DNA of 64,000 nt from Desulfuromonadales bacterium (lineage in GTDB: Bacteria > Desulfobacterota > Desulfuromonadia > Desulfuromonadales > SZUA-540), in contig JAWSUS010000009.1 of assembly GCA_033549025.1 (NCBI GenBank), positions 1 to 64,000 on the forward strand, written 5' to 3'. A program made the position numbers and the translations under genes. Numbering within the stretch: the stretch's first letter is position 1; every line of letters begins with the position of its first letter. Positions 8,346 to 56,169 of the stretch are shown here, piece by piece. The notes under the pieces were generated by a model. That model had not been told where the DNA came from, ran no database searches, and saw nothing but the letters and a program-made list of their open reading frames with translations.

Positions 8346-9467
8346 TCAGGCGCCAGACGTCAGCCGGTCGAGAAACTCCACCACCAGGGGGGTGAACTTT
8401 TCCGGCTCCACCAGGAAGGAGTCGTGGCCGTAGTCCGAATCGATAAGGTGATAGGCGACCGGTTTGCCCAGACGGTGGAGGACGTCGACCACCTCTTCGG
8501 TCTGGGAGGGCGGGTAGAGCCAGTCGGAGGTAAAGGCGAACCAGAGGGAGGGACACTGCAGGTTGGCCAGGGCTTCTTCGAGCCCATCGAAGTTCCAGGC
8601 CACGTCGTAGAGATCGAGAGCTTTGGCCAGGTAGAGGAAGGAATTGGTGTCGAAGCGGTCGACGAAGCTGCTGCCGTTGTATTCGAGGTAGCGTTCCACT
8701 TCGAAGCGGCCGAAAAAGTCAAAGAGACCGTCACGGGCGGAAAAGCGGCGGCCGAACTTCAGATGCATGGAGGCGTCGGACAGAAAGGAGACATGTCCGA
8801 CGGCCCGGGCCAGGGTCATTCCGTCAGCCGGAGGGTGCTCGGGCTTGTAGTTCCCCTTTTTCCACATGGGATCGTTGAAGATGGCCTGCCGAGCCAGGGA
8901 GTTCAGGGCGATGGCCATGGGCGAGGTGCGGCCGGTGCCGGCGATGGGGATGATGGAGCGGGGGACTTCCGGGTAGAGGATGCCCCATTCCAGAGCCTGC
9001 ATGGCGCCCATGCTGCCGCCGATGACGGTGACCAGGGAAGAGATGCCCAGATGGTCGAGGAGCAGTTTCTGCGCGCGGACCATGTCTCGCACCATGAGGA
9101 CCGGAAAGCTGAGGTTGTAGGGGCGGTCGGTGCGAGGATTGAGGCTGGTCGGGCCGGTGGAGCCTTTGCAGGAACCGATGACGTTGGAACAAAGGATGAA
9201 GTAGCGGTTGGTGTCGAGGACCTTGCCGGGTCCGATCATGTCGTCCCACCAGCCGGGCTTGCGGTCCTCTTCCGAGTGGCGGCCGGCAGCGTGGGCGTCG
9301 CCGGTCCAGGCGTGGGTGACCAGGATGGCGTTGGAGCGGTCGCGATTGAGGGTGCCGTAGGTCTCGTAGGCCAGAGTGATGGGCCCGAGGACGCGGCCGC
9401 TTTCAAGCTTCAGCTCGACGTCGAAAGTGACCGATTCGGTTTTGACCAGGCCGATGGATTGGTTCAA
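8346..9467 (-). CDS. metX: homoserine O-acetyltransferase
   Basis: [26 protein letters not shown] motifs. Likely TTG start at 9467; the longer ORF runs through the riboswitch. Confidence 0.92.
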
Positions 9468-9486
9468 CGCGCGACACCCTTTGACG

Positions 9487-9523
9487 TAAAAAGGCCCCTT
9501 CCCAGGGTGACAGGAGGGGCCTT
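9487..9523 (-). terminator. riboswitch expression-platform terminator
   Basis: aaggcccct...aggggcctt stem plus TTTTT, between aptamer and metX RBS. Confidence 0.75.
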
Positions 9524-9565
9524 GACGATACGGGAAAAGATAAGCGCGTATCTTTCGGGCTCCGT

Positions 9566-9671
9566 CCTCATCTGTCCCAGTTACAGGGCAGGAATTAGCA
9601 CCTGGCATCCGCATCTGCGGATCGGTTGCTGTGGCTTCACAGGGCCTTTCCCTCCACCACTCGCGATAAAG
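9566..9671 (-). promoter_or_regulatory. SAM-I (S-box) riboswitch
   Basis: Minus strand CTTTATCGCGAG..GGAGGGA..GGCCC..TGAAGCC.CAGCAACC...GGTGCTAATTCCTGC...GATGAGG upstream of metX; promoter TTGACA-17-TAGAGT at 9720-9692. Confidence 0.93.
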
Positions 9672-9759
9672 ACGATGCAATTGTGCTTGGGACTCTAACG
9701 AATCACGCCTGGTTTGTCAAATGCATTCGTTGCCGTACCAAAGAAGGGACGCCGGCCGT

Positions 9760-9789
9760 TTGACGGGGTAGGGAGGTGGAGGGTATAAT
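9760..9789 (+). promoter_or_regulatory. near-consensus sigma70 promoter with no downstream CDS
   Basis: TTGACG-18 nt-TATAAT. Confidence 0.65.
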
Positions 9790-9795
9790 AAAAAC

Positions 9796-9874
9796 AGATA
9801 GAAGGTTGGGAGGCCGGCAAGGTCTCCTCGTTCGCCCTGGATGACTCGCCCTCCTGGTCTCCAGGGTGTTTTTT
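9796..9874 (+). ncRNA. candidate small RNA (~80 nt, two hairpins, anti-SD loop)
   Basis: Follows the promoter. Hairpin ggaggcc/ggtctcc, then terminator hairpin cgccctgga(t)gac/gtctccagggtg + TTTTTT with loop TCGCCCTCCTG. Confidence 0.55.
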
Positions 9875-9882
9875 GTCCCGAT

Positions 9883-10323
9883 TCAGCGCAAATCGCCGCT
9901 GAGTTGCTGCAGATTGTTCTTCTCCTGCCGGGCCAGGTCGGCGAAGGTATAGCTTTTGAGTACGGCAATCATCCTTTCCTGAACTTCGTGCCAGGCGCCA
10001 TGAACGGGGCAGAAGACGTCGCGGGAACAGGCCCCGTTCTTTTCCAGACAGAGATTTAGGTGCAAGGGACCCTCTTCGGCCTCGACGATGTCCAGCAGGC
10101 TGACCTGGGTGGGGTCCTTGGCCAAAAAGAAACCGCCGCCGACCCCCCGCTGTGAGCCGACGATGCCCGCCTTGATGAGAGGCTGCAGAACTTTGGTGAG
10201 GAAGGCCGGCGTGATATCCTGCGTCTGGCAGATATCCTTTTTGTAGACGATCTCCCCCTCGGGCTGTTTGGCCAGAAAAAGCAGGGCTCTGATAGCGTAC
10301 TCGGTGGCGCGGGTGATAACCAA
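9883..10323 (-). CDS. Rrf2 family transcriptional regulator (3 Cys, probable Fe-S)
   Basis: TEYAIRAL, SQRGVGGGF, C-x6-C-x5-C; TTG start after GGAGG. Confidence 0.9.
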   Translation of the reverse strand: MVITRATEYAIRALLFLAKQPEGEIVYKKDICQTQDITPAFLTKVLQPLIKAGIVGSQRGVGGGFFLAKDPTQVSLLDIVEAEEGPLHLNLCLEKNGACSRDVFCPVHGAWHEVQERMIAVLKSYTFADLARQEKNNLQQLSGDLR

Positions 10324-10340
10324 AATGGGACCTCCTATTG

Positions 10341-10357
10341 ATAACCGTATGGGTTAT
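10341..10357. promoter_or_regulatory. palindromic operator candidate (Rrf2 autoregulation)
   Basis: ATAACC-N5-GGTTAT between the minus-strand promoter (TTGACA at 10385-10380) and the Rrf2 RBS. Confidence 0.4.
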
Positions 10358-10476
10358 GGATACCTGCCGGATGGTTTTTTGTCAATGGCAAAGGCCTGTC
10401 TTATCGCAAAAGACGATCGCTTGACAGAGCGCTGGTGCGCGGGCATCATCTATTCCTGATGCGTGGTGATGTGATC

Positions 10477-11391
10477 ATGAACCCTGAAAAAAGCCAGCGG
10501 ACCGTCGGCCGCTTTGCCCCCAGTCCCACCGGTCCTCTGCACTTCGGCTCCCTGGTGGCGGCTGTCGGCAGCTACTGCCTGGCCCGCCGGGAGCACGGCA
10601 AATGGCTGGTGCGGATCGAGGATCTGGACCAGCCTCGGGTGATGGCGGGAGCCGCCGATCTCATTCTGTCGACCCTGGAGGAGTTCGGCTTCGAATGGGA
10701 TGAAGCGCCTCTTTACCAGAGCCGGCGTATTGCCCGCTACGAAGAGGTACTGAGCCATCTCAACGAGGACGGCCATATCTTTCCCTGTGCCTGTTCGCGG
10801 CGGGAGGTTCTGGCCAGCGCGCCCCATCCGGGCGAGGAAGGGCCGGTCTATGCGGGGACTTGTCGTCAGGGGCTTCCCCCCGGGCGGTCGCCCCGTTCCC
10901 TGCGCCTGCGAGTACCTGCTGGGCCCCGGCTGTTTGTCGACGGTATCTTCGGCCCGGTGGAACAATGTCTGGCCAGTGCCGTCGGTGATTTTGTCCTGCG
11001 CCGGGCCGACGGGCTTTTTGCCTATCAGCTGGCTGTGGTGGTCGACGACGCCGATAGCGGCGTCAACCAGGTGGTGCGCGGCGCGGACCTGCTTCATTCC
11101 ACCCCCCGACAGATTTATCTCTATGCCTGCCTGGGCTGGCCGGTGCCCCGCTACATCCATTTGCCGCTGGCGCTGGATGCCGCCGGCGACAAAATCAGCA
11201 AGCGGCAGGGTGAGGTGTCCGCTCCCCGTGAGGGCGAAAGCGGCCGGTTGCTCGCCCAGGCTCTGCGCTTTCTGGGGCAGGCGGTGCCGTCCGAACTGGT
11301 AGAGGCACCGCCCGGGGAAATCCTGCGCTGGGGTGTGGAGCATTTTCGTCTGGAGGCTGTCCCCCGCGAGAATCGTATGGCCGGTGTCTGA
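10477..11391 (+). CDS. gluQ: glutamyl-Q tRNA(Asp) synthetase
   Basis: GRFAPSPTGPLHFGSL, CACSRR, YQLAVVVDD, KISK; no anticodon-binding domain. Confidence 0.92.
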   Translation: MNPEKSQRTVGRFAPSPTGPLHFGSLVAAVGSYCLARREHGKWLVRIEDLDQPRVMAGAADLILSTLEEFGFEWDEAPLYQSRRIARYEEVLSHLNEDGHIFPCACSRREVLASAPHPGEEGPVYAGTCRQGLPPGRSPRSLRLRVPAGPRLFVDGIFGPVEQCLASAVGDFVLRRADGLFAYQLAVVVDDADSGVNQVVRGADLLHSTPRQIYLYACLGWPVPRYIHLPLALDAAGDKISKRQGEVSAPREGESGRLLAQALRFLGQAVPSELVEAPPGEILRWGVEHFRLEAVPRENRMAGV

Positions 11392-11486
11392 CCGGGTGGC
11401 GGGCATTGCTGCCGGGAGTGTCTGCCGCTGAAGGTGTTTGTCAGCCCGGGTTAAAACTGAAGAAGAGGAAAGAAGGGAGGAAGACC

Positions 11487-12314
11487 ATGCGCAGGATATC
11501 TCTGTTGTTGATCTTTGTACTGCTGGCTGGCTGCAGCGGCAGTTATTTCAAGGTGCCCAAGGAGGAATATCAGGCCCGCGTCCGTACGCTCGGCGTCCTG
11601 CCGCTGCTGGTGGACGAAAAGGCTTCACTGGGTCATCCCGATGAGAGCCTTATCTTCGAAGTGCTTCAGCGCGAGAATGCCGGCAAGGAGCAGCTTCTCG
11701 TCGAGGAACTGCGTGCCCAGAAGGGTTATTTTGATGTGCGGCGCCTTGGCGGTCATCCGCAGGATCTTGTTTATGGCCTGGTGCGCGGCAGCTCCCTGGG
11801 CGGCGAGGGTGAAACGCTCTATCGGCGCTACGCTTTCAATGCCGAGGCCGTCAGAAACCTGACGGACGGGCATGTGGTGGATGGCCTGCTGGTAGTCATT
11901 CTCAATGGTCTGCAGAGGCCGGAAAAACGCTGGGACCGCACCCGCCTAAGGTATCTGGAGGCAGACTACAGTGCCATTCAAGTCACCGCCGCCGTCGTCA
12001 CCCCGACGGGTGAGGTGGTCTGGGAATATCCGAGCCCACCGGGGAGCGAATTTCTGCTTCTGCAGTATCCGGATTTTGACGAGGCCCATTACAACCGGGC
12101 CGAGGCGGTCGCCATCAAGGACATTTCGGTACAAGGTTTGCGGCGCGCCTTACAGGAGCGGACGAGAGGGCTGCTGGGCCAAGAGAAGGAGCCCGATCTC
12201 TATAGGAAACTCTTCAGCGATCTGGCCGCTCAGCTGCAGCCGGCCACCTTCCAGCTGCCGGGGAAGACTCCGGCTGCCGCTGCCGGCACGGAGGAAAAGG
12301 AACCTCGTCCCTAG
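11487..12314 (+). CDS. hypothetical lipoprotein
   Basis: MRRISLLLIFVLLAGC lipobox; GGAGG RBS before ATG 11487. Confidence 0.75.
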   Translation: MRRISLLLIFVLLAGCSGSYFKVPKEEYQARVRTLGVLPLLVDEKASLGHPDESLIFEVLQRENAGKEQLLVEELRAQKGYFDVRRLGGHPQDLVYGLVRGSSLGGEGETLYRRYAFNAEAVRNLTDGHVVDGLLVVILNGLQRPEKRWDRTRLRYLEADYSAIQVTAAVVTPTGEVVWEYPSPPGSEFLLLQYPDFDEAHYNRAEAVAIKDISVQGLRRALQERTRGLLGQEKEPDLYRKLFSDLAAQLQPATFQLPGKTPAAAAGTEEKEPRP

Positions 12315-31403: not shown

Positions 31404-31479
31404 GGGCCTATAGCTCAGTTGGTAGAGCCACCGGCTCATAACCGGTTGGTCCCAGGTTCGAATCCTGGTGGGCCCACCA
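31404..31479 (+). tRNA. tRNA with CAT anticodon, most likely tRNA-Ile2 (lysidine)
   Basis: Cloverleaf GGGCCTA..TAGCTCAGTTGGTAGAGC..ACCGG CTCATAA CCGGT..GGTTCGAATCC..CCA. No initiator features; position after rpoD is typical of Ile2. Confidence 0.93.
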
Positions 31480-33558: not shown

Positions 33559-33945
33559 GGCTGGAGAAGGACAGATGATCGCTGGCCCCTTCGGGGGCGG
33601 GAGGAAAGTCCGGGCTCCATAGGGCAGGATGGTCCCTAACGGGGACCGGGGGCGACCCCAGGGAAAGTGCCACAGAGAGGAGACCGCCCGTCCACGCTTC
33701 GGCGAAGACGGGTAAGGGTGAAAGGGTGAGGTAAGAGCTCACCAGTTCCGGCGGTGACGTCGGAAGCTCGGTAAACCCCATCCGGAGCAAGACCAAATAG
33801 GGGAGCGTTTGAGGGCGGCCCGTCCGAAGCTCCCGGGTTCGGTTGCTTGAGGCTGTCGGCAACGGCAGCCCTAGAGGAATGATCATCACCCCGTCGCGGG
33901 GAACCGCGGCGAGGAACAGAACCCGGCTTACGGCCTTCTCCAGCC
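33559..33945 (+). ncRNA. rnpB: RNase P RNA (class A)
   Basis: GAGGAAAGTCCGGGCTC, GAAAGTGCCACAGA, GGTAAACCCC..GGAGCAA, AACAGAACCCGGCTTA; terminal pairing ggctggagaagg/ccttctccagcc. Confidence 0.96.
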
Positions 33946-42805: not shown

Positions 42806-45499
42806 TCAGGAGGAGAAGGCCGCTTCAAGAATCTCCTCCTGTTCTTTTTTGTGCAGGCGATGGGAACCCACGGCGGGGGCCGCAGCCGGTTCGCGGCCGA
42901 TATAGTCTGGCTCCAGGCCGGTAGCCTTCGCCAGGCGCGGCCGCACGAACTCCCAGGCGCCGGCGTTGCGGGGCTCCTCCTGAACCCAAACCACCCGCTC
43001 CAGCTGGACGAAGGGGGCTAAAAGCTCCTGCAGGCGCTCGCCGTGCCAGGGGTAGAACTGCTCGACGCGCACCAGGGCGATGGTTTTGTGACCCTCGTCC
43101 TTCGCCTTTTCCTGCAGTTCGTAGAAAATTTTGCCGCTGCAGAAAAGAAGCGTCTTGACGGTCTCGGGTTTTTCGGCCGTCAAAAGGAAATCCTCGAAGC
43201 GCCCTTCGGTGAATGCCTCCAGCCTGGAGCGGCAGGCGGGATGCCTCAGCAGGCTCTTGGGGGTGAAGACAATCAAGGGGCGCCGGAAGGGTTGCCGCAC
43301 CTGCCGGCGCAGCAGATGAAAAAACTGGGCCGGCGTGGTGGGGTTGGCTGCCTGCAGGTTGTTGTCGGCGCACAGCTGCAGAAAACGCTCGATGCGGGCG
43401 CTGGAATGTTCGGCACCCTGCCCCTCGAACCCGTGGGGGAGGAAGAGGGTCAGGCCGCTGTGCCGGTCCCACTTGGAGGAGCCGCTGGCGATGAATTGGT
43501 CGATGATGACTTGGGCGCCGTTGGCGAAGTCGCCGAACTGGGCCTCCCAGATGGTCAGGGCGTGAGGCGTTTCGAGGGAATAGCCGTAGTCGAAGCCGAG
43601 CACTGCCGCTTCGGAGAGCATGCTGTTGTAGATGCGGCAAGCCGCCTTGTCCTTGGCCAGGGTCGCGAGGGGCATGAAGGTCTCGCCGTTTTTGGCGTCG
43701 ACCAGCACGGCGTGGCGGTGGTTGAAGGTCCCCCGGCGTACGTCCTGGCCGGAGAGGCGCACGCTATTGCCTTCGTGGAGCAGAGTGGCCAGGGCCAGAT
43801 GCTCGGCGTTGCCCCAGTCGATCTCCTCCCCGGTTTCGATGGCTTCCAGCCGCTTCTGCAGCAGGGTGGCGATTTTGGGGTGCGGCGAAAAATCGTCGGG
43901 GACCAGGGCCAGTTGGCGGGCGATATCCTGCAGGGTGTCAGCGGAAACCGCTGTGGAGACCGGCGCCGGCGTGGTGTCGCGGGCGATATCTTTCCACTTC
44001 CCCCGAAAACCGGCATCGGCCGGCTTCCCCTGTTTTTCCAGGGACTCCTCCAGATGCTGCGAGAAACTGTCGGCCATCGCCTCCATCTCCTCAGGGGGGA
44101 CGCCCTCTTCCTGCAAGCGCGCGCTATAGATTTCGTAGGCGGGCGGGCGCTCTTTGATCTTTTCATACATCAGGGGTTGCGTGAAATAGGGCTCATCCCC
44201 TTCGTTGTGCCCGTGCCGGCGATAGCAGATGACTTCGAGGATGACGTCGCGGCCGTAGCGCTGGCGGTAGTCGAGGGCCAGGTCGGCCACATAGGCCGCC
44301 GCCTCGGGATCCTCCCCGTGGATGTGGAAGATGGGAACCATGAGCATCTTGGCCATGTCCGTGGCATAGTGGGTGGAGCGGGCGTCAGCCGGGGCGGTAG
44401 TAAAGCCGATCTGGTTGTTGAGGACGATGTGCACCGTACCGCCGGTACTGTAACCTTCCAGCTGAGAAAGATTGAGGGTTTCGGCAACCATCCCCTGGCC
44501 GGCGAAGGCGGCGTCGCCATGGATGAGCACCGGTAGGACGCGCTTGGCCCCGTCCTCACCGAGGGCTTCCTGTCGCGCCCGGGCCTTGCCTTCGACGACG
44601 GGGTTCACTACTTCCAGGTGGCTGGGGTTTGAGGCCATGGTCAGGTGCAGGCTTTCCTGGTCGGGGAAATCGTGGTCGATGGAGAAGCCCTTGTGGTATT
44701 TGACATCGCCCTCGCCGACGAATTCGTACTCCAGGTTGTCTTTAAACTCGGCGAAGATGTTTTCCAGAGGTTTATGGAAGTTGTTGGCCAACACGTTGAG
44801 ACGTCCCCGGTGCGCCATGCCCAGAACCAGGGTTTTCAGAGAGAGTGCAGCGGCCCGGTGAATAAAGCGGTCGAGCAGCGGGATGATGATTTCGCCCCCT
44901 TCCAGGCTGAAGCGCTTCTGCCCGAGAAACTTGCGGTGCAGAAAATTCTCGAACAGGGTCGCCTGCTGCAGCTTCTGCAGGATGGCCTTCTTCTCCGCCA
45001 CCGAGAAGGAGGGACGGTTGCGGCAGTTCTCCATGCGATCGATGAGCCATTGGCGCTCGGCCGGATCCTGAATATGCATGAATTCCACCCCGATGGACCG
45101 GCAGTAGGTCTCCTGCATGGTCGTCAGGATTTCTTTCAGGGTGGCGCTTTCCTTCAGAAACCGCTTGGTATGAAACTCCCGCGGCAGATCGGCCTCTTCC
45201 AGACCGAAGGCCTCAAGGTCGAGCAACGGGTGGGAGAGGGGGCAGGGATTAAGCGGATCGGTGCAGGCCAGCAGGTGACCAAGGGAACGGTAGCGGTACA
45301 GGAGCGACTGAACGGCGGACTGCTTGAGTTCCAGGGCATGGCACGCGCCGGCCGGCGTCGTCTTGGTCGATTCGGTGCGCCCCAGGGCAAAGCCTTCGAA
45401 GAAGATCTGCCATTGGCGGGGTACCTGCTGTGGATCCTCCTTCCAGAGGACATACTGGGCTTCAAAATAGTCGGGGCTGGCGTTGTCGAGAAAGGTCAT
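42806..45499 (-). CDS. sucA: 2-oxoglutarate dehydrogenase E1
   Basis: KRFSLEG, GMAHRGRLN, GDVKYH, HGDAAFAGQG, WEAQFGDFANGAQ; ATG 45499. Confidence 0.96.
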   Translation of the reverse strand: MTFLDNASPDYFEAQYVLWKEDPQQVPRQWQIFFEGFALGRTESTKTTPAGACHALELKQSAVQSLLYRYRSLGHLLACTDPLNPCPLSHPLLDLEAFGLEEADLPREFHTKRFLKESATLKEILTTMQETYCRSIGVEFMHIQDPAERQWLIDRMENCRNRPSFSVAEKKAILQKLQQATLFENFLHRKFLGQKRFSLEGGEIIIPLLDRFIHRAAALSLKTLVLGMAHRGRLNVLANNFHKPLENIFAEFKDNLEYEFVGEGDVKYHKGFSIDHDFPDQESLHLTMASNPSHLEVVNPVVEGKARARQEALGEDGAKRVLPVLIHGDAAFAGQGMVAETLNLSQLEGYSTGGTVHIVLNNQIGFTTAPADARSTHYATDMAKMLMVPIFHIHGEDPEAAAYVADLALDYRQRYGRDVILEVICYRRHGHNEGDEPYFTQPLMYEKIKERPPAYEIYSARLQEEGVPPEEMEAMADSFSQHLEESLEKQGKPADAGFRGKWKDIARDTTPAPVSTAVSADTLQDIARQLALVPDDFSPHPKIATLLQKRLEAIETGEEIDWGNAEHLALATLLHEGNSVRLSGQDVRRGTFNHRHAVLVDAKNGETFMPLATLAKDKAACRIYNSMLSEAAVLGFDYGYSLETPHALTIWEAQFGDFANGAQVIIDQFIASGSSKWDRHSGLTLFLPHGFEGQGAEHSSARIERFLQLCADNNLQAANPTTPAQFFHLLRRQVRQPFRRPLIVFTPKSLLRHPACRSRLEAFTEGRFEDFLLTAEKPETVKTLLFCSGKIFYELQEKAKDEGHKTIALVRVEQFYPWHGERLQELLAPFVQLERVVWVQEEPRNAGAWEFVRPRLAKATGLEPDYIGREPAAAPAVGSHRLHKKEQEEILEAAFSS

Positions 45500-55353: not shown

Positions 55354-56016
55354 TCAGATCATGTCGATGAGGGTCTTGATCGTTTTTTCAATCCCGTCAG
55401 CCGCCTCGCTGATGTGCTCTGCCAGCATGTAGGCCGGCGTCGTGATGATTTTGTTTTTCTGGTCGATGACAATTTCCCGTACGGGACAGGTCACATGCTT
55501 GCCCCCCATGGTCTCAAGGGCCTGGGCGGTTCCCTGGTCGCTGCCGATGGTGATTTCGGGGGTAAGACGGTCGCCGCCCAGCACCTTGGCGACAAGGGCC
55601 GGGGCAATGCAGATGGCCGCCAGCGGTTTTTTTGCCTGGACGATTTCCCGCATCAGACGTGCCACCTCGGGGTTGACCGTGCAGTCGGGCCCCTTGACGG
55701 CAAAATCGCACAGGTTCTTCGCCGCGCCGAAACCGCCGGGGAGGACGAGGGCGTCGATGTCTGCCGCCTTCACATCCTTCAAGTTCCTGATTTTGCCGCG
55801 GGCGATGCGGGCGGCCTCCTGCAGAACATTGCGCTGCTCGCCCGGCACGGGTTCGCCGGTGAGGTGGTTGATGACATGCATCTGGGGGATGTCGGGGGCC
55901 ATAAAGACCGCTTCGGCTCCGGCCCGGTCAATAGCCAGCAGGGTGAGGACGGTTTCGTGGATTTCGCTGCCGTCATAGACACCGCAGCCGGAAAGAATGA
56001 CGCCAATTTTAGCCAT
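55354..56016 (-). CDS. elbB: glyoxalase ElbB (DJ-1/PfpI, ES1 family)
   Basis: LSGCGVYDGSEIHE, EAARIARG, PGGFGAAKNL, CIAP, TTPAYM. Confidence 0.93.
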   Translation of the reverse strand: MAKIGVILSGCGVYDGSEIHETVLTLLAIDRAGAEAVFMAPDIPQMHVINHLTGEPVPGEQRNVLQEAARIARGKIRNLKDVKAADIDALVLPGGFGAAKNLCDFAVKGPDCTVNPEVARLMREIVQAKKPLAAICIAPALVAKVLGGDRLTPEITIGSDQGTAQALETMGGKHVTCPVREIVIDQKNKIITTPAYMLAEHISEAADGIEKTIKTLIDMI

Positions 56017-56169
56017 GGGACACCTCCTTTGTATGAACAGGTTCACTGATGGACAGAAAATGGGGACAGGCCGCTGGCTATGAAATTTTAAGCTGGCCTG
56101 ACTTGAAAGCGTAGAAAATTTCCACCGTTTGTCAAGTTGTCCGCTCGCGAAATCGGCCCGGTTTCCCCG

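Follow-up and report, generated by a model that had tools for sequence, protein, structure and literature searches.

The RF01733 (atoC RNA) element of a Desulfuromonadales bacterium read as a probable small-RNA gene with a conserved CCCUCCU terminator loop

The locus

The window, a stretch of 64 000 nucleotides of contig JAWSUS010000009.1 from a Desulfuromonadales bacterium, carries a short intergenic element between the SAM-riboswitch leader of metX and a gene for an Rrf2-family regulator (table 1). The two boxes of its promoter are separated by 18 nt and match 11 of the 12 consensus bases; within 8500-11500, three promoter-like sites were found against 0.5 +/- 0.7 in shuffled sequences. The start of the RNA is predicted 6-7 nt past the -10 box (9795-9797).

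Table 1. Features of the element and of its immediate neighbours in the window.
Feature	Position	Strand	Remarks
-35 box TTGACG	9760-9765	+	sigma70-type promoter scan; TTGAC/TTGC kept across the family at the same place
-10 box TATAAT	9784-9789	+	positions 3-8 of the RF01733 model; T-A---T invariant in 31/31 aligned loci
Predicted small RNA, ~78-80 nt	9796-9874	+	family length 71-92 nt, median 78
Hairpin P1	9808-9828	+	structure kept, sequence variable
Hairpin P2, intrinsic terminator stem	9834-9867	+	P2 pairs in 95.9% of cells
CCCUCCU (CCCTCCT in DNA)	9849-9855	+	inside the 9-nt P2 loop; complements AGGAGGG
U tract TGTTTTTT	9867-9874	+	five T invariant, 68/68
Rrf2-family regulator gene	9883-10323	-	convergent; stop 8 nt past the U tract; TIGR00738, 117.8 bits
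SAM-I riboswitch aptamer, neighbour only	9565-9672	-	leads metX (8346-9470); divergent promoter TTGACA-17-TAGAGT, 9720-9692

Two open reading frames touch the element (9717-9968 on the - strand and 9841-10059 on the + strand); they overlap the promoter or run antisense to rrf2. Relatives do not keep the ATG at 9841. On the rrf2 strand no U tract follows the hairpin. The initial annotation had described a near-consensus + strand promoter placed back-to-back with that of the SAM riboswitch, no credible coding sequence, and two hairpins with a U tract on the + strand only, and its observation of the element is confirmed.

The RNA of 9795-9876 folds with a predicted energy of -34.7 kcal/mol (z -2.16), and 6 of 200 shuffled sequences are equally stable. 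The terminator scan alone does not rise clearly above chance (6 sites found, 2.8 +/- 2.0 expected). Fold stability by itself is only modest, and it is the comparative data that carry the case. Elsewhere in the window, the class A RNase P RNA (33563-33945) and a tRNA gene (31404-31476) are both ordinary.

Identity of the element

The Rfam covariance model assigns positions 9782-9873 of the + strand to RF01733, 'atoC RNA', with 52.1 bits against a gathering cut-off of 50. The match is full length (model positions 1-93 of 93, E 1.7e-6). The element of the window is a new member of RF01733, and the 'novel' small RNA of the initial annotation, which had itself proposed an Rfam scan, turns out to be already catalogued.

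The family was introduced by Weinberg et al. (2010; PMC2864571), whose alignment has five rows from delta-Proteobacteria and who typed it as cis-regulatory; the entry in their Table 1 reads lower-case 'y' for RNA and for cis-regulatory, and '?' for riboswitch. Our element shares with RF01733 the two hairpins, the CCCUCCU loop, the U tract and a deltaproteobacterial host. What the model treats as the 5' end of the RNA is the -10 box of the promoter, which the supplement of Weinberg et al. may already mention. One of the five seed rows matches a stretch of genome G169 that has neither CCCTCCT nor the promoter pattern, and it looks like an ordinary terminator. The label of the family does not suit the window: a cis-regulatory element would be the 5' leader of a dependent gene on the same strand, whereas here no gene lies downstream on the strand of the RNA and the next gene is convergent.

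Conservation of promoter, stems and loop

The promoter was surveyed at 134 loci, 121 of them distinct, and 120 of these have enough upstream DNA. The pattern TTG-N(3+16-18)-TAnnnT, ending 38-59 nt before P2, is present at 110 of the 120 and at none in a control shifted by 200 nt. The members share one architecture, consisting of an A-rich 5' tail, a variable P1 and the terminator P2 with its CCCUCCU loop.

Both hairpins covary among relatives, a check that the initial annotation had suggested. In P2, four of 12 pairs show compensatory change, and none of 500 shuffles reaches the observed number of alignment cells with such change. One-sided changes in P2 mostly yield G-U pairs on the + strand, which fixes the + strand as that of the RNA. 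In a model-fitted alignment of 77 matches, which leans towards the structure, 14 of 18 pairs have changes in both partners, and for P1 the figure is six of six. P1 folds with z < -2 in 98 of 103 distinct regions, compared with 10 of 115 control regions.

The heptamer CCCUCCU is present in all 77 aligned matches. Part of this invariance comes from the way in which the loci were collected: a pattern containing the loop yielded 73 of them, and the others are the top hits of a model in which the loop adds to the score. Loci with divergent stems nonetheless keep the loop (L297-L304). The invariant stretch is 7 nt long, and the flanking position varies. The loop is predicted to be unpaired (mean >= 0.8) in 102 of 104 RNAs. 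The exposed anti-Shine-Dalgarno loop of the initial annotation is thus borne out, as is its expectation that promoter and loop should be conserved in relatives.

The family alignments contain no conserved start codon; an ATG occurs in the 5' part at 46 of the 121 distinct loci.

Taxonomic distribution

RF01733 was found in 66 of 151 genomes of the window's order. For the class the count is 101 of 151, to which four families outside that order contribute 71 of 75. Our own covariance model, R1, built from 68 sequences, finds the RNA in 88 of the 151 genomes of the order. Some families of the order mostly lack it (f2, 0/4; f5, 0/14; f10, 0/7; f22, 1/23), and two genomes tested from such RNA-poor families still encode Hfq. 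In a sample of the phylum, R1 has matches in five of 151 genomes, all in the class, and none was found in the 146 outside it among the best 30 candidates per genome.

A search pattern combining the -10 box, the loop and the U tract is matched in 172 of 251 class genomes, some of the matches belonging to a multi-copy sibling family described below; the reversed pattern is matched in none. A GTDB scan for P2 returned 73 named records, nearly all from Geobacter, Geomonas or Pelobacter-type organisms. No copies of the RF01733 family were found in viral contigs. Judged from these matches, the predicted RNA gene is conserved through most of the class Desulfuromonadia and is usually single-copy.

Expression in a relative

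Four raw RNA-seq runs of 2026, from two studies, were mapped onto the locus L038 of the relative G169, where the RNA is identical to an RF01733 seed row and the -10 box lies at 1503-1508. Depth on the + strand is 0-3 up to position 1535 and reaches 36, 4.6, 19 and 4.1 in the next bin of the four runs. Since this rise falls inside the element in 4/4 runs, the promoter of the RNA appears to be active in L038. In one run the molecule ends pile at 1538 and 1543.

At the U tract the depth does not drop and no 3' end is seen, in libraries of 150-nt paired reads that largely exclude an RNA of about 78 nt. The molecules observed are therefore read-through. Of the + strand transcript with two defined ends foreseen in the initial annotation, the start inside the element is therefore seen in the relative, whereas the 3' end is not.

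A second, larger rise (about 150-300 in three runs, some 30 in X22) occurs near 1697-1700 and fits the downstream gene's own promoter (-10 box at 1672-1677). In run X24 the antisense depth over the element (about 20) exceeds the sense depth (4-5). Six chimeric reads of run X21 join position 1695 to the ribosome-binding site, in reverse, of a gene for a 74-aa small protein (G169:3751336); they are probably a library artefact.

Neighbouring genes

Among 31 loci of the order, rrf2 lies convergent downstream of the RNA at 26; two loci are cut by contig ends and three have other genes there. The upstream gene is metX at seven loci, cysH at seven, an ammonium transporter gene at eight, a multiheme cytochrome gene at four, a DUF2061 gene at two and another gene at three, so that the sulfur-pathway genes metX and cysH account for 14 of 31. 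A link to methionine status, raised speculatively in the initial annotation, is only local, because the upstream gene varies in this way.

The same passage raised a link to Rrf2. The neighbourhood with rrf2 is kept at most loci of the order, but other genes stand there in Geobacter-type loci. No conserved operator was found at the promoter of the RNA; no conserved motif was found upstream of the -35 box in the window's order. The Rrf2 protein scores below the cut-offs for IscR, CymR and NsrR. Control of the RNA by Rrf2 was rejected: the palindrome ATAACC-N5-GGTTAT (10341-10357) precedes rrf2 rather than the RNA and was found at only 4 of 31 loci. It is the sole exact copy in the genome, is kept in the genus, and is a possible autoregulatory site of rrf2.

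The short transcript could instead act locally, meeting the 3' end of the rrf2 mRNA or shielding the divergent upstream promoter. The rrf2 stop codon lies close to the U tract, scanning for terminators gives none on the - strand from rrf2 to the metX leader, the convergent arrangement is the usual one in the order, and antisense transcription covers the relative's element in the one run mentioned. Geobacter-type loci nevertheless keep the same RNA without a convergent gene, and an RNA complementary to its partner by construction would have no need of an invariant loop; we give this local antisense or insulator role little credence.

In Geobacter-type loci the downstream gene is on the same strand (78 of 121 distinct loci). 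Reading of their sequences alone leads us to take these genes to be an Fe-S/sigma54 activator (44 loci) and folK (34 loci). Both genes are present in the window's genome on other contigs. Past the U tract, 43 of the 44 activator genes and 32 of the 34 folK genes, or 75 of 78, have -35 and -10 boxes of their own, against 0 in controls on coding DNA and on the other strand. A conserved repeat, GTGTGCCA-N4-TTGCACA, overlaps the activator's -35 box in this type of locus (e.g. L038:1590-1690). In the other family folK is seemingly leaderless, starting a few bases past its -10 box. Tandem copies of the RNA occur in G035 (L299, G035:C38:18511-18738), each with its own -35 box, -10 box and U tract; G059:C14 also carries tandem duplicates.

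These loci bear directly on the reading of the Rfam entry, in which the element acts in cis, as a leader or attenuator, and its terminator sets how much transcription continues into the following gene. Besides the typing by Weinberg et al. (2010), this reading can call on the same-strand gene that follows at the 78 loci, on RNA-seq fragments that cross the L038 U tract at roughly 3-20% of the gene's depth, and on the G-rich 5' arm of P1, for which pairing with the C-rich loop is conceivable. It must be set against a next gene that is convergent in the window and at 26 of 31 order loci, same-strand genes that are mutually unrelated (activator, folK, hydrogenase) and nearly all served by promoters of their own, the existence of tandem copies, and the seed row that has neither loop nor -10 box. 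The changing neighbours, the downstream genes' own promoters and the tandem copies with promoters argue for a small-RNA gene and not a leader. We consider a cis-acting leader improbable. The functional type given to RF01733 is probably wrong, and a free-standing small RNA fits better than the cis label; the initial annotation's proposal of a free-standing RNA on the + strand, here about 78 nt long and with promoter and terminator of its own, is supported by the family-wide comparison.

Units sharing the same terminator loop

In genome G000, CCCTCCT occupies the loop of 5 of 1013 terminator-like hairpins against 0.4 expected, and its reverse complement that of one. In the scanned part of G169, the loop was found in one of 493 hairpins, namely that of the main RNA itself.

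One G000 unit (C8:112307-112387, + strand; L144) has a perfect sigma54 box, TGGCAC-N5-TTGC, a length of about 60 nt and the terminator loop UUUCCCUCCUU; this layout was found in two genera, in 6 of the 251 genomes of the class. A unit of about 65 nt on C17 (end near 44202, - strand) has the sigma70-like promoter TTGATT-17-TATGAT and the loop UUCCCCUCCU; G021 and G026 have the same hairpin. On C16 (about 55990-56112, + strand), a sigma54 box is followed by a C/A-rich stretch and a terminator with the loop CCCUCUCUCC, between genes for an Fe-S/sigma54 activator and a GAF-domain protein; this may be a further small RNA, or else an attenuator. In three genomes of the genus (L007:1500-1587, which is G000:C17:56013-56099, L005 and L006), a gene of the sodium:sulfate symporter family ends in a pair of hairpins whose loops are rich in C, a possible 3'-derived sibling.

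The multi-copy family of small RNAs, met in genomes of family f17 (G048, G105, G121, G130 and G133; L305-L369), reaches about nine copies per genome and seems to be undescribed. On 65 metagenome contigs, 57 copies have a terminator, 44 of these 57 have the CCCTCCT loop, and 49 of 54 have a sigma70 promoter of the form TTGAC-N17-19-TAnnnT. A single-stranded 5' stretch is antisense to AGGAGG-N-ATG-AAG-AA, a feature demanded by the search pattern. No conserved open reading frame was found on the opposite strand.

That antisense match to a ribosome-binding site and ATG, in a family with the same terminator loop, is what could suggest that the atoC RNA, too, is a type I antitoxin or encodes a small peptide as a mini-gene. 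The opposite-strand frames of the multi-copy family nevertheless have 6-62 codons and no conserved product. The atoC family, inspected by eye, keeps no ribosome-binding site with start codon on either strand, and an ATG in its 5' part is confined to the minority of loci noted above. Such a function is highly improbable, and the toxin-antitoxin reading in particular was rejected, there being no conserved opposite-strand frame in the atoC family (by inspection) or in the multi-copy family.

Outside the class, two Patescibacteria genomes (L125/L146 and L147; 2 of 101 in their order, one of them Candidatus Moranbacteria) carry a P2 and U tract that are nearly letter-identical to those of the RNA. 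In both, the location is the interval that separates grpE from dnaK, on the strand opposite to the operon. A TTGACA promoter is present in L125, whose genome gave no Hfq match.

Taken together, these units may form a superfamily of Desulfuromonadia small RNAs that has not been described before, built around a common CCCUCCU terminator-loop module, with RF01733 as its constitutive core member. The siblings of RF01733 would be controlled by sigma70 or sigma54, derived from an mRNA 3' end, or present in multiple copies with an anti-start-codon seed, and the whole would amount to class-wide translational control in Geobacter-like metal reducers; the module may also have passed into some Patescibacteria. 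We put this scheme forward tentatively, as a possibility that we hold to be the less probable outcome.

Candidate targets and proposed function

CCCUCCU is found in 3 terminator loops of phage contigs, against 4, 2 and 10 for heptamers of the same composition. It is not a generic terminator loop, because the phage matches do not exceed those of the control heptamers; a looser pattern gave 73 phage hairpins and strict patterns gave no excess over the controls. Hfq is encoded in the genome. Since CCCUCCU is the sole invariant single-stranded sequence of the RNA and not a generic terminator loop, and since Hfq is encoded, repression of translation initiation in trans is the favoured function.

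By analogy with known small RNAs, the element is thus probably a constitutive trans-acting RNA whose terminator loop would pair with ribosome-binding sites of the AGGAGGG type. The near-consensus sigma70 promoter would drive an RNA of about 78 nt, which we infer to accumulate free in the cell. Its CCCUCCU loop would start pairing with AGGAGGG, or through a wobble pair with AGGAGG, in the ribosome-binding sites of several mRNAs. Pairing in trans would then repress the translation of these mRNAs, perhaps with the help of Hfq.

Upstream of the 2902 gene calls of G000, AGGAGGG occurs in 38 cases and is the rarest AGGAGGN class. Orthologues were compared between these calls and 2213 of our own calls in 2.61 of the 3.81 Mb (69%) of G169, which gave 1264 reciprocal best hits. 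In that 69% of G169, AGGAGGG is kept in one of the 11 G000 genes that have both this site and an orthologue (p = 0.13), and its sharing between the two genomes is no better than that of other AGGAGGN sites. The sole shared site precedes pilN and is confounded by its position in the pilM coding sequence. Loop-only duplex energies gave no standout pair between G000 and G169.

The fraction of G after AGGAGG has a median of 0.151 in 101 genomes of carrier families and 0.181 in 48 genomes of non-carrier families (p 5e-7). Taken per family, avoidance of AGGAGGG before ATG gave p = 0.85; two genomes of family f4 were left out of this test as ambiguous, and its result is not counted as support. A multi-copy family of 70-aa small proteins has an AGGAGGG site in one member per genome; it also occurs in a family without the RNA (9/10). 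Pairing with the SAM riboswitch or with RNase P RNA was rejected, as neither contains AGGAGGG. The P1 loop contains GGA (CUGGACGCAG) in only part of the family, so that titration of CsrA is unlikely as a shared function.

The loop of a free-standing RNA might also be read by a protein or by another RNA, for example as a decoy imitating the 3' tail of 16S rRNA (CACCUCCUUU in this genome) or as a stability tag recognized by a chaperone. Such a role would suit a loop in which just seven nucleotides are invariant, target tests that gave no conserved mRNA target, and the sharing of the loop by unrelated small RNA units of the order, as seen in the multi-copy family, the sigma54 unit and the excess of CCCTCCT hairpins in G000. 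It has, however, no candidate protein, the enrichment is absent from the scanned part of G169, and the C-rich loops of RepG and the cuckoo RNAs act or are thought to act by pairing (PMC8295292, PMC4615179). We regard recognition by a protein or another RNA as rather unlikely, and pairing with mRNAs remains our preferred reading.

A literature search under the gene tag GSU3363 returned nothing. The literature searched contains no functional study of a base-pairing small RNA in Geobacter or its relatives, and none of atoC RNA or RF01733 beyond the original motif paper; the G. sulfurreducens transcriptome of Qiu et al. (2010) may list the RNA. In the available part of PMC6013743, 30 small RNAs of G. 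soli are listed without annotation, and in that of PMC11934962 only predicted CsrB-like RNAs are mentioned.

Should the proposed function hold, an Rfam entry typed as a cis-element would be a small-RNA gene kept through most of the class, among whose species are some that produce current and can be manipulated genetically. Its 7-nt seed could be mutated in one step, which would make post-transcriptional control in metal reducers directly testable. The database annotation would be corrected; taken without a target, the result is a re-annotation and not a new mechanism.

Comparison with known small RNAs

In several bacterial small RNAs, among them RsaE/RoxS, Yfr1, CJnc190 and the 6C sRNA of Actinobacteria, C-rich single-stranded motifs pair with G-rich translation-initiation regions. 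These RNAs differ from the atoC RNA in architecture and taxa (6C, RsaE/RoxS, CJnc190 and Yfr1 alike), and none gave an Rfam match at gathering level.

RepG of Helicobacter pylori, whose C/U-rich terminator loop pairs with G-rich mRNA leaders (PMC8295292), resembles the atoC RNA as a small intergenic RNA in which the terminator loop is the pairing site, proposed in our case. The RepG loop is long, made of C and U, and reads a variable G repeat, whereas that of the atoC RNA has 9 nt with a fixed heptamer; the window has no match to the RepG family at gathering level in Rfam.

The cuckoo RNAs of Alphaproteobacteria (RSs0680/CcsR, alpha-r14) have two to four hairpins, each with the loop CCUCCUCCC (PMC4615179). 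They share with the atoC RNA variable stems, an invariant anti-Shine-Dalgarno loop and the existence of paralogous copies. The atoC RNA differs from them in having one such loop, with the motif CCCUCCU, placed in the terminator and found in another class, and by this single loop, other motif and other class it falls outside the cuckoo family. By analogy, the atoC RNA is most likely an anti-Shine-Dalgarno small RNA of the RepG or cuckoo type, yet a member of neither family.
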